From the NCBI GenBank assembly GCA_951406725.2, contig OX597836.1, forward strand, positions 2,728,001 to 2,792,000: a stretch of 64,000 nucleotides of DNA, given 5' to 3'. A program made the position numbers and the translations under genes. Positions within the stretch are counted from its first letter, which is position 1, and each line of letters starts with the position of its first letter. This document shows, in pieces, positions 37,085-53,581 of this stretch. This stretch comes from Octopus vulgaris. Taxonomy: Eukaryota. The notes below the pieces were generated by a model. That model saw nothing but the letters and a program-made list of their open reading frames with translations, did not search any database and was not told the origin of the DNA.

Positions 37085-37457
37085 CAACAATTGAGGGTTA
37101 AAATTAATTAATCAATTTCACCAAGTGTTCAGTATGTAAAAGGACCATTTAAGGCGAATTCAAAATTTTACATTATATAATTAGGGCTTAGTAAAATAAA
37201 TTACTTTGCCACATACTGAACTTAGTAGAAATAGCAGCCAAAAAAAAATTTTCTTAGCATTTCTACTACTTAAAGAAAATTTCTCTCAGATAATGTTTAC
37301 TCCAGACAGCCCACGAAGGTTTGGAGGTAAACATTATCTGAGAGAAATTTTCTTTAAGTAGTAGAAATGCTAAGAAAATTTTTTTTTGGCTGCTATTTCT
37401 ACTAAGTTCAGTATGTGGCAAAGTAATTTATTTTACTAAGCCCTAATTATATAATGT
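37085..37457. mobile_element. Fold-back insert A in (TA)n: 85-bp unique tail plus 131-bp perfect inverted repeat
   Basis: Arms 37170-37300 and 37327-37457 identical by inspection, 26-nt spacer; (TA)n on both sides. Confidence 0.85.
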
Positions 37458-39325
37458 TATATATATATATATATATATATATATATATATATATATATAT
37501 ATACAAACACACACACACACCTTGAAAAATAGCTTAAACTTTCCATGCCGAAACCGTTGTACTACAGTGGACAAATTTTGATATCTTCGCATCTGAAGTA
37601 GCTGGAGATACGGTATTTTGACCAAAAGAATCGGCTATTGCAAACAAAAATAAATATTGAAACAAAGGTAATTGGCCAAATTTGGATATACGACAGTTTA
37701 ACATAATTGCAACGATACATACATATATATATATATATATATATATATATATATATATATAGAGAGAGAGAGAGAGAGAGAGAGAGAGAGAGAGAGAGAG
37801 AGAGAGAGACTTATATACATATATATACATACCTACATACACACACTGAGAGAGTTTTCTGAAATAGTATGAAAGGTGGTTCATAAGAAATAATGGTAAT
37901 AGTATTATACACAGTGAGACAGAGCGATGTGAGATTTAAGAAGCGAAGGGAAAAATTGGAAAGTAATGCGGAAGTGTTGTTTAGTAAAATGGAAAGTGTC
38001 ACGCGGAGTCGGTTATAGTGATGGTATTTGTAGTGGTGGTCGTGATGGTGGTGGTGTAGGTAGCGGTGGCGAATGAATGTGTAGGTGGCAGTAAATTGAA
38101 TGGGTGATGGCACTAATGTATCTATTATTCAATTAGATTTCCACAGAATCTGTTTCGTTAACACTCTCCTTCTCTGTAACATTTGTTGTTGATGACACGG
38201 TGTGTGAAGACATTTCGTGTGATTCAGAGTTTTCTCTGATTTGGAGTGCTTTTTTTTTTCGTGGTGGTCATTAATTTTATCTTCATTTTTCATCATTATA
38301 TTTGTTTGTTTGTTTTGATTAGCTTGCACATTTTTTTTATAGTTCTATTTTGTTTTTCTCTTTGCTTATTGGCCGCCATTATTTAAGTTGTGCTTCACCG
38401 TTGCACACGACTGCGACATTAATAAATAAAATGGACGTTATCGCGAGACAATTTGTTATTGGCATCACGCTGGATATATCAAAATCATAGTACAAGAGAA
38501 ATACAAAAAAAACCCCACAAATGAACACATCACACACACGTGCCTATATATACATATATATATGTGTGTGTGTATGTGTGTGAGTGGGTGGGTGTGGGTG
38601 TATGCATGGATATATACATAAATGTATGGAAACATATGTATATATATATATATATATGTATGTATACATATGTTTATATATATATATATGTGTGTGTGTG
38701 TGTGTATGTAGGGATATATATGCATACATAAGTATATATATATATATACACGAATATACATATATACTTGTATAGAGACACACACAAACACTCACACAAA
38801 CACATATATGTATGTATGTATCTATGTATGTATGTATCTATGTATGTATGTATATATCCTCGTCAGTCGTCTTTGTACTTAGTCATAAATCACACTCTGT
38901 GTTGCTTTTCTGTGTTTGCTGACGATTCTGAATTCTAGGCATAAAATTTATTTTTAAGGGTACCGCCAATATGGGAAGCCCTTAGGGTTATCATTAATCC
39001 TGCAAAACTGAATATTACCAATTGGTTGATATCTGTTGAAGAATTTGTAACCCTCTGTTTCTGTTGTTCACAGAATATAAATTACGTCGTTTCTTTATTT
39101 ACCATACAATTTTCCTGTGATATATATATATATATATATATATATATATATATATAACCTTAACTTTTTGAAAAACTCTTCCTCTATATATTATAGCTGC
39201 ATCAAGTCATTTCCTATAACTATCTATCTATCTATCGACCGATCTACACACACGCGCACACACACACACACACACACACACACACACACACACACACACA
39301 CACACACATATATATATATATATAT

Positions 39326-39522
39326 AGGGGGGAGTTCACGAAAAAAACAAAAGACGAAGACAGGTGGTGTACAAAACAAACTGATGTTTTAGTATAACGC
39401 TCAGGAATATAAAAAGTTTTTTACGTTTCGAGCCTACGCTCTTCTACTATTGATAGGGACACAGAAAAAAACAAGGAGAGAAAAAATGTGTGTAGTGGCT
39501 ACCGATCTATCATGGCGACTCC
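39326..39522 (-). mobile_element. PLE pLTR-like insert in (TA)n with degenerate hammerhead
   Basis: Minus strand GAAGAGC-GUAG-GCUC-GAAACGUA at 39422-39447; layout resembles 52641-52825. Confidence 0.6.
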
Positions 39523-39889
39523 TATATATATATATATATATATCAGTTACGAACTGATTTCTTCAGTCTGACACAAACTGTTAGGTGTGAATACTGAGTG
39601 CTCAAATTGATATGTCACTAATATTCCAGTTTGAACTGCAGTCGAAGTTGTGAATTTGCGACTACTTTTCCAAAGCGGCTAGAAATGGCTTCGCCTGGAA
39701 TCGATAGGTATAGGTTAAAGTAGGAAACTAAAGGTAAACAGATGGCAAACAGTTTGGCAAAACTTGACAAGATTGTTTAATTTATCTATGTAATAAAACG
39801 CTTGAGAACCAGTACTGATATGTTTACGATTGTGCAACTTAGTTGTTCGGCAAATAACATCACTACCATATGTACCACACTCAAGAAAT

Positions 39890-40290
39890 TATTTGTTTCT
39901 TTATTGCTCACAGGGGGTTAAACATAGCGAGGACCAACAAAGGGATTAAGTCGATTATATCGACCCCAGTGCGTAACTGGTACTTATTTAATCGACCCCG
40001 AAAGGATGAAAGGCAAAGTCGACCTCGGCGGAACATGAACTCAGAACGTAACGACAACTGAAATACCTATTTCTTTACTACCCACAAGGGGCTAAACACA
40101 AAGAGGACAAACAAGGACAGACAAAGGGATTAAGTCGATTATATCGACCCCAGTGCGTAACTGGTACTTATTTAATCGACCCCGAAAGCATGAAAAGCTA
40201 AGTCGACCTCGGCGGAATTTGAACTCAGAATGTAACGGCAGACGAAATACCGCTAAGCATTTCGGCCGGAGTGTTAACTTTTCTGGCAGC
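39890..40290 (-). mobile_element. SINE family A tandem dimer
   Basis: Two bodies joined at gaaatacctatttcttt (~40060-40076). Confidence 0.9.
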
Positions 40291-52640: not shown

Positions 52641-52825
52641 GTTAATCCAAACATGGAAACACAAAGAGAAGACACAACAACGCGCGTACGTGGAAGAAGT
52701 ATAGTATTATTGGACGACGCTCAGGAAAGGAAAGAAAGGAGTATTTAGCATTTCGAGTGCAGCTCTTCGTCAGAAACATAGGAAAATGAAAGATCCAAGG
52801 AAGGGAAGACGGAGGAAAAAACGGT
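52641..52825 (-). mobile_element. PLE pLTR-like insert with hammerhead motif
   Basis: Minus strand CUGACGA-A-GAG-CUGCA-CUC-GAAAUGCUA at ~52745-52773; begins next to tatata. Confidence 0.65.
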
Positions 52826-52829
52826 ACAT

Positions 52830-53098
52830 ACGCGTTGCATAATAAATGATTTGATCTGAGACCGTTGGCTGAAAAAAAAAACAATTGCATTGTGGAAGGT
52901 GTTTATAAGCCATTTAAAAATCACACAAAAACTGTTAGATTCACTCTGAGATGCAGCACAGAATTTTGGCAGTGAAGAGATCGCGGTGTCAAAGCGACGA
53001 AAATATTTCGAAAAATTAAATTTAAATGTTGAAGTGAATCTAACAATTTTTGTGTGTTTTTAAATGAATTAAAAAAAAACCCTTCCACGTTGCAATTG
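52830..53098. mobile_element. Family 1 fold-back insert, copy 2
   Basis: Imperfect inverted repeat ~52882-52945 / 53033-53098; hammerhead-like core 52962-53017; homologous to 2951-3200. Confidence 0.65.
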
Positions 53099-53226
53099 CA
53101 TAGCTATATTTTTTCTTTCTTCCTTACACCTTTCAGTCACCCGACTATGGCCACGTTGGCGCACAAGCCTGAAGGGTTTCAGTTAAGCAAATCAACCCCA
53201 GGCCCTAAATATATATATATATATAT

Positions 53227-53581
53227 TTAAAAAAGGAGATGTGGAACACGAGTTGTGATATATAAAAAAGGAAATGAAGAAAATGCTGACAAAATAATTT
53301 AAGTAATTTAAGTAATTTAATTAGGTGAAAGGTCTTTTTACCGGTTGCGCATTTGTTATGCTTATCAAAATATATTTTTTAAAGAGAGATTAGAGTTCCT
53401 TTCTGATAGATTTTTTCCTCTTATCTGCGGAAAAAATAAGAGGAAAAAATCTATCAGAAAGGAACTCTAATCTCTCTTTAAAAAATATATTTTGATAAGC
53501 ATAACAAATGCGCAACCGGTAAAAAGAACTTTCACCTAATTAAATTACTTAAATTATTTTGTCAGCATTTTCTTCATTTCC
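53227..53581. mobile_element. Fold-back insert C in (TA)n: ~43-bp tail plus 155/146-bp inverted repeat with a hammerhead-like motif in each arm
   Basis: Arms 53270-53424 and 53436-53581 differ by a 9-bp tandem duplication and 1 substitution; 11-nt spacer. Confidence 0.85.

Follow-up and report, generated by a model that had tools for sequence, protein, structure and literature searches.

The 64,000-nt stretch of the Octopus vulgaris genome analysed here (hereafter the window; GenBank assembly GCA_951406725.2, contig OX597836.1, positions 2,728,001 to 2,792,000 of the forward strand) contains five long hairpins, A, B, C, D1 and D2 (Table 1), which an earlier note had described as fold-back inserts with one-sided tails. 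A self-comparison of all 64 kb confirms the five in place and identifies them as the sole long non-microsatellite inverted repeats with a spacer below 100 nt; their density of about one hairpin per 13 kb is a local figure, for the window only. Each consists of an arm that begins at one fixed end of the family sequence (site 1, unit position 1) and an inverted arm that ends at a second position, fixed for the family (site 2). Our analysis makes it probable that all are retroposed fragments present in many copies, that C stems from an autonomous Penelope-like element (PLE), that A, B and D stem from protein-free RNAs for which PLEs are the likely movers, and that the hairpins arose by twin priming from two fixed RNA sites.

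Table 1. Inserts and associated features of the window (RT, reverse transcriptase; unit positions count from site 1).
Feature	Position	Strand	Remarks
A, site-1 arm	37085..37331	-	unit 1-250 of 564-bp tandem unit with predicted hammerhead; 97.6% to unit L005:1501-2064
A, tail	37085 to ~37171	-	part of site-1 arm
A, inverted site-2 arm	37327..37457	+	unit 219 to 89; reaches to the second site, which is fixed in the family
B, site-1 arm	42843..43072	-	unit 1-230 of 491-bp tandem unit with predicted hammerhead
B, tail	42843 to ~42943	-	part of site-1 arm
B, inverted site-2 arm	43075..43165	+	unit 191 to 101
C, site-1 arm	53227..53427	-	terminal 200 bp of autonomous Neptune-type PLE; tail 31 nt
C, inverted site-2 arm	53436..53593	+	unit 197 to 31; unique letters to 53581, remainder merges with TA tract
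C, predicted 56-nt GT-AG intron, retained	53286..53341	-	removal puts ATG in frame with the element's first open reading frame (seen on L245)
D1	2945..3203	.	site-1 arm 2945-3059 (unit 1-115); site-2 arm 3061-3203 (unit 206 to 64)
D2	52835..53098	.	site-1 arm 52835-52943; site-2 arm 52948-53098
(TA)n target of A	left 37062..37083; right 37458-37503		left tract is (TA)11
(TA)n target of B	42831-42842 and 43168-43199		
(TA)n target of C	53210-53225 and 53583-53640		
Motif common to A, B and related families	37227..37243	+	also at 42986; ~145 nt from site 1
Decayed PLE RT, other family	14154..14951	+	42% to L124 PLE RT; 31% to C's RT

The arms of A (131 nt; RNA sense, we infer, on the minus strand) are identical, with unit 1-250 joined to 219-89 via a 5-nt overlap (microhomology); those of B (91 nt, spacer 41 nt) are likewise identical, and those of C (~157 nt) are set apart by a single internal substitution and one 9-bp repeat unit. 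The two D copies are 77% alike; D1 likely has an 11-bp target duplication (2929-2939 and 3206-3216, read by eye), and the right arm of D2 retains a decayed minimal hammerhead-like motif. Just left of D2, a piece of a very common repeat (52745-52821), probably another PLE pseudo-long terminal repeat (pLTR), matches the minimal hammerhead pattern with bulged helix II on the minus strand at 52773. Two parts of the earlier description need revision: the tails, given there as 43-100 bp, measure ~87 (A), 102 (B), 31 (C) and 60 nt (D), and the proposed targeting of (TA)n holds for A, B and C, which are flanked by it on both sides, but not for D1 and D2, which lie outside (TA)n. The statement that A and B are unrelated save for a short motif stands, their similarity being limited to 18 nt (17/18 letters).

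Searches of the host genome (2.8 Gb, 227 contigs) yielded 40 scored candidates per insert on many contigs, with copy identities of 97-100% for A, B and C and ~80% for D; the arms are thus multi-copy and not the single-copy host sequence that the earlier note had named as a refuting case. We fetched 30 loci per search, plus tail-anchored sets of 30 for A and D, which after merging of overlaps left 47 A, 21 B, 30 C and 58 D places (for D, 60 loci became 58 places as one pair was merged and one further locus had no row). The initial candidate totals (872-2891) do not measure copy number and do not serve as such here. A single C copy that was duplicated seems to underlie both L089 and L090.

Four of the 30 C places extend beyond position 201, and on L121 and L245 the arm runs on into PLE reading frames, as the earlier note had proposed to check. 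On L121 the C segment continues into RT and GIY-YIG frames; the latter matches Pfam PF01541 with E 1.4e-4 and 22.5 bits, against a curated cut-off of 22.6, and RVT_1 gave no match in C's frameshifted open reading frame (ORF) pieces. The ORFs of L121 and L245 carry GLKF, DKG, YLDD and a GIY-YIG variant, with the endonuclease (EN) at the C-terminus; the linker of C reads CNRPNCGIC (CX4CxxC) and its CCHH motif has the form CSGC...H...H. The near-full-length copy on L245 exhibits the canonical PLE layout: (TA)n comes first, then a 1.55-kb 3' piece that is inverted and bears the tail, a partial 5' pLTR including the C segment, ORF pieces, a 3' pLTR without tail, and (TA)n, with one site-1 and one site-2 end. 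These predicted frames show C to be the terminus of an autonomous EN+ PLE with RT and C-terminal GIY-YIG. Since GLKF, DKG, CX4CxxC and CCHH match the published definitions (PMC8557442), which give the Neptune clade a CX2-5CxxC linker, a CCHH motif and a C-terminal EN, C fits Neptune, by motifs rather than by a tree. The Hydra clade, with DKT and RWK motifs, a CxCX5C linker and no CCHH (PMC8557442), was rejected in view of C's DKG, CX4CxxC and CCHH, and so was the Naiad clade with its N-terminal EN. PLE RT remnants had also been noted within the window: one is indeed present, but it belongs to another family, also found on L124 and L018. It was rejected as parent of C given only 31% identity to C's RT, and no connection to the remaining window inserts was found.

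The C segment starts at an Inr-like TCAGAT (initiator), ~28 nt behind a TATA-like motif, so that the site-1 arm corresponds to the first 200 nt of the predicted PLE transcript with its inner end at the predicted transcription start. In a sample chosen for reaching 200, arms stop at 195-204 in 26/31 (site 1) and 17/22 (site 2) cases. Genome-wide, a 23-mer ending at position 201 has 144 exact matches and a 24-mer crossing it 83, and 39 of the first 100 23-mer matches listed continue past 201 (by eye); more than half of the C arms that reach 201 appear to end there. We infer run-off at the 5' end of the transcript. The genome contains 0 C copies spliced at the predicted 56-nt intron; a joint in run X3 that skips 64 letters was rejected as a spliced form since it does not match this intron. 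No hammerhead was found in C's terminal 1 kb by pattern search, which a more divergent variant could escape.

A and B belong to head-to-tail units of 564 and 491 bp, respectively, which form arrays of up to 3-4 full units at the sampled loci, are AT-rich, and have longest ATG ORFs of only 34 and 26 aa. A further family, E, found in the flanks, has a 594-bp tandem unit 65% similar to A across 200 nt, 3274 places in the genome that match a 25-mer exactly, and arrays with up to 7 motif copies on one strand (L193 = G000:C1:10835489-10838513; L185-L214). Each unit of A, B and E contains one type I hammerhead pattern, on the presumed RNA strand in A and B, with predicted GUA cut triplets at unit 286 in A and 234 in B; shuffled controls matched the pattern in 0/500 cases for A and B and 0/300 for D and E. 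A, B and E also share a 17-18 nt motif at about equal distance from site 1, a candidate RT binding site. We conclude that A and B are truncated pieces of non-LTR retrozymes with predicted hammerheads; the window copies stop before the cut sites (unit 250 vs 286 and 230 vs 234). TA tracts act as common landing sites. Among the other tenants of such tracts are (i) family F (L215-L244), a further autonomous Neptune-type PLE with two 3' end points ~50 nt apart, (ii) more A/E-like families on L020, L048, L077, L081, L216 and L235, in tracts shared with other PLE products, and (iii) two tandem copies of an unrelated ~505-bp unit (L245:7121-8142). On L134:589-2236, an RT-EN fragment of family F is fused to an A insertion without TA; lying in opposite sense, at 1/30 F loci, this junction was rejected as a parent link and is read as a chimera (deletion or template switch).

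D, a short element of ~215 nt, has a sharply defined 5' end. At 26 places with the full 5' end, no shared sequence was found upstream, in a set whose search pattern required AA nearby and is biased accordingly. Target duplications of 9-16 bp flank 16/26 non-TA sites, compared with 6/650 mismatched flank pairs. The element has a minimal hammerhead-like motif (7-bp helix I, bulged helix II, palindromic loop III), which resembles the minimal hammerheads of PLEs in layout (PMC4209133). Its core reads GUGAACA in 29/37 copies, that is, a G3:C8 swap; an engineered hammerhead with this double swap is partly active (PMC11167929), and natural U3:A8 cores are on record (PMC3088659, PMC4209133). The literature listings contain no natural G3:C8 core, a weak negative; the supplements of PMC7229834 and bioRxiv 10.64898/2026.07.22.740005 may hold some. 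D lacks the tandem organisation typical of retrozymes, short repeats occurring at 1/58 places only. A hammerhead-like motif seemingly with a U3:A8 core lies in the 3' end of another PLE (L026, ~1380-1480, minus strand; seen by eye, missed by the pattern). Hammerhead cleavage as the cause of inner ends was rejected: tail-anchored D arms pile up at 204-212 (13/28) with none at cut site 148, and few A ends fall at 282-286.

The near-constant length and long inverted repeats of C and D might suggest miniature inverted-repeat transposable elements (MITEs) or other non-autonomous DNA transposons targeting (TA)n. We consider this extremely improbable, since the inner ends of A and B vary freely, tandem units occur, the tail sits at one end, C continues into RT, and target duplications vary over 9-16 bp; for C, the RT/GIY-YIG junction refutes it. 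In the absence of fixed symmetric terminal inverted repeats, the earlier assertion that these are not standard MITEs is borne out. So is the PLE origin, given that C runs into a PLE RT/GIY-YIG ORF and that A, B and D have hammerhead motifs and end like autonomous PLEs of the same genome.

The central observation concerns the ends. Of 120 two-armed insertions, 102 pair a site-1 end with a site-2 end (A 26/32, B 13/18, C 20/22 (1/31), D 43/48), site 2 being fixed within each family at unit ~31-103; not one of the 120 is a true same-site pair. If each strand chose its site independently, at most half of the insertions would be one-of-each. Because the samples favour tail-bearing copies, two sets anchored elsewhere were scored, and these likewise gave one of each in 10/10 (E) and 16/18 (D) cases with no 1/1 or 2/2 pair (tallied by eye). 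Both sites are AT-rich, with TA-like microhomology in A and C, and in the first samples both ends touch (TA)4 at 40/47 A, 17/21 B, 19/30 C and 20/58 D places. Joints show short overlaps or a few extra letters. One C insertion (L122:1158-2473) has as its inverted part an internal 5' ORF segment off site 2 and lies nearer to L1-type twin priming or to later deletion.

That the hairpins might be fold-back chimeras of assembly or library preparation, another refuting case named in the earlier note, was addressed with read-derived contigs. No contig among those listed bridges the window's A, B or C joints. Other C and D fold-back joints are present in contigs of four runs of three studies, in three of which (TA)n is joined at or near C's site 2; runs X8 and X9 have (TA)n at B's site 2, and a 105-nt contig from run X2 reproduces the joint of D2 itself exactly. 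Contigs of run X10 contain B pieces (the RNA label of this run is a guess and was not used). Chimeras also do not account for a family-specific fixed site 2 on many chromosomes, for target duplications, or for arms that differ in old copies, and we regard this explanation as having almost no likelihood.

The pattern of ends is what twin priming from two fixed sites would be expected to leave. In a (TA)n or AT-rich target, the GIY-YIG domain would place nicks ~11 bp apart, one in each strand; of the two 3' ends so made, one would start reverse transcription at site 1 and its counterpart at site 2, which lies 31-102 nt further along the template; and the two cDNAs would stop independently and then be joined head to head, often via microhomology. 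The tail would represent the template stretch between sites 1 and 2, and the spacer the length by which one arm outruns the other. In C and D both cDNAs would often run off the fixed 5' end of the RNA, which would account for their constant-length, MITE-like hairpins, while in A and B the template would be an uncleaved multimer or circle, from which tandem arrays with the same two ends would follow.

The earlier note had left twin priming and snap-back side by side, and our data fit the former better. In a snap-back, a single cDNA would fold back on itself and serve as template, the product would be resolved at site 2 by the endonuclease, and later one-sided central deletions would make the spacer. 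Palindromes are known to lose their centre asymmetrically. Snap-back also accounts directly for variants shared between arms, and the centre is perfect or near-perfect in 8 C copies. Published proposals explain head-to-head PLE palindromes by self-priming (PMC3846280) and the tail by EN-mediated resolution (PMC8557442). Against it, the site-2 arm often holds sequence missing from the site-1 arm (13/28 A, 4/17 B and 31/48 D, the D set being partly query-biased), up to 1 kb; lone arms starting at site 2 exist; and site 2 is an RT start in vitro in another PLE (PMC11167929). In A, the site-2 arm reaches further in 13/28 insertions and less far in 12 (e.g., 18 nt vs ~1000 nt). As either arm can be the longer one and both tend to share template variants, twin priming is favoured and snap-back seems unlikely. 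At the C joints of L062-L086 5 copies have T at the palindrome centre, 2 have TG and 1 has A, as would be expected for two identical cDNA ends annealed across a T-T mismatch; the copies are too few to weigh.

With twin priming as the preferred reading, one may ask whether both cDNAs derive from one RNA. Subfamily variants compared arm against arm are shared to unshared as 59 to 12 in A and 15 to 0 in B, compared with 2426 to 13085 and 229 to 1478 between insertions, and 89 to 10 and 12 to 7 among tandem units within one insertion (pair counts are not mutually independent). Private variants common to both arms number 11 in A, 6 in B and 6 in C. These, together with concordances of 83% (A) and 100% (B) at subfamily sites, speak against two RNA molecules held by a PLE dimer, a variant of twin priming for which some support exists: the same template stretch appears in both cDNAs, which on a single RNA demands strand displacement; some arm pairs disagree at subfamily sites (12 in A, 14 in C); one dominant source per germ cell would also yield concordance; and a dimer has been predicted for a PLE protein (PMC11167929). 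We hold this variant to be possible and on balance doubtful.

Several observations weigh against our interpretation as a whole. As scored, 18/120 two-armed insertions are off the pattern, of which 3 are neighbouring insertions scored jointly (L020, L127, L076) and 15 have one end off-site. The two arms agree less well in their variants in C (16 to 14) and D (17 to 81), and gene conversion from one arm to the other could likewise yield such agreement. In vitro, no difference in start site was seen between the strands, which does not by itself predict the one-of-each rule (PMC11167929). The window's own A, B and C joints are without confirmation by reads, B and C being unbridged in the contig pieces listed. 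C's transcription start and intron are predictions, and the ribozymes of A and B are pattern predictions: A's helix II has only 3 pairs, and Rfam reports no hammerhead in the units, with 0 matches at gathering score in the window and 4 loci, and, at E up to 10 in 5 loci, weak miRNA and other unrelated matches driven by the hairpins and no hammerhead family. Finally, translated search of the fetched loci, 30 loci of family F and the 26 D places with complete 5' end turned up no parent ORF for any of A, B, D and E; what argues for their mobilisation by PLEs is therefore the footprint.

Hence, the inserts are of known kinds, to which a useful and testable mechanistic rule, one-of-each, is added. 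It is tempting to speculate, though we would stop just short of backing it, that a PLE dimer copies one RNA from two fixed sites at once, one copy per strand and strictly one of each, that retrozymes are inserted as ready multimers (possibly by rolling round a circle), and that priming near the RNA's 5' end mass-produces constant-length MITE-like hairpins, one family of which has a natural G3:C8 core. The tandem and inverted insertion of PLEs and the mobility of animal retrozymes are named open questions (PMC8557442, PMC7229834, bioRxiv 10.64898/2026.07.22.740005), and the many young copies of A, B and C allow both to be scored here. Retrozyme arrays whose ends fall at the two kinds of site that also bound autonomous PLEs constitute footprint evidence for insertion by a PLE enzyme, multimers included, and the one-of-each rule together with variant sharing provides sharp predictions for an existing in vitro system. 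In practice, the hairpins of C and D would wrongly end up among MITEs or, given the weak Rfam matches of such hairpins, among miRNA precursors, and they seed long double-stranded RNA structures wherever transcribed.

When compared with published systems, the layout is less novel than the earlier note had it, because PLEs have already been described with an inverted pLTR, a tail, two start sites and a targeting of (TA)n (PMC8557442, PMC3846280, PMC11167929); target duplication is likewise on record, as are the (TA)n bias, the inverted copy and the tail on one side (PMC8557442, PMC3846280, PMC8969392). A tail of 30-40 bp at one end is typical of EN+ PLEs. C shares with EN+ Neptune-type PLEs (PMC8557442, PMC3846280) (i) the RT with C-terminal GIY-YIG, CX4CxxC linker and CCHH, (ii) 5' truncation, partial tandem pLTR, inverted 5'-truncated copy, one-sided 31-nt tail and (TA)n bias, and (iii) TATA plus Inr in the pLTR, and possibly a retained intron, which in C is a prediction. 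It differs in that no hammerhead was detected in its terminal 1 kb and in that many copies are fixed-length hairpins of the first 200 nt only; we found no description of fixed-length MITE-like PLE hairpins in the portions of the literature consulted. Recently active Penelope families are listed in an octopus (PMC13282606), without such anatomy in the passages concerned.

A and B resemble non-LTR retrozymes (PMC7229834; bioRxiv 10.64898/2026.07.22.740005) as protein-free tandem units with one type I hammerhead each and longest ATG ORFs of 26-34 aa, dispersed as dimers to multimers alongside PLEs. The A/B/E units of 491-594 nt exceed the 170-400 nt of invertebrate circles and lie inside the 51-972 bp range of the preprint (bioRxiv 10.64898/2026.07.22.740005). 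Three features of theirs are absent from the descriptions consulted, namely the 87-102 nt tail of PLE type, the inverted arm and the targeting of (TA)n; the word 'inverted' is absent from the main text of PMC7229834, and the literature listings contain neither retrozyme arrays with tail and inverted arm nor octopus retrozymes, for which the supplements may hold data. Retrozymes as PLE passengers have been proposed (PMC7229834) and argued for (bioRxiv 10.64898/2026.07.22.740005). For their tandems local amplification has been suggested (bioRxiv 10.64898/2026.07.22.740005), whereas the array ends here suggest insertion as multimers. Non-autonomous Chlamys elements such as MRC1 are likewise non-coding PLE passengers with head-to-tail insertions in multiple copies, and generally resemble their autonomous partner at the 3' end (PMC8557442), whereas no partner was found for A, B, D or E.

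For the mechanism, the closest parallel is the Poseidon PLE of Anolis (PAc) in vitro, where two internal RT start sites bound the tail, both strands are nicked and extended, and the RNA template is uncleaved (PMC11167929). An uncleaved template is indicated here as well, because ends do not pile up at the hammerhead cut sites; the sites differ from those of PAc in lying up to ~100 nt apart and being AT-rich, and the genomic end pairs are one of each. In L1 twin priming, both target strands prime, giving a head-to-head inversion with a microhomology joint and a target duplication; the second primer acts at internal sites that vary, and for the most part the two cDNAs span separate regions. Here, in contrast, site 2 does not vary and the two cDNAs span one and the same region, so that this stretch is copied twice and the product is a long hairpin.

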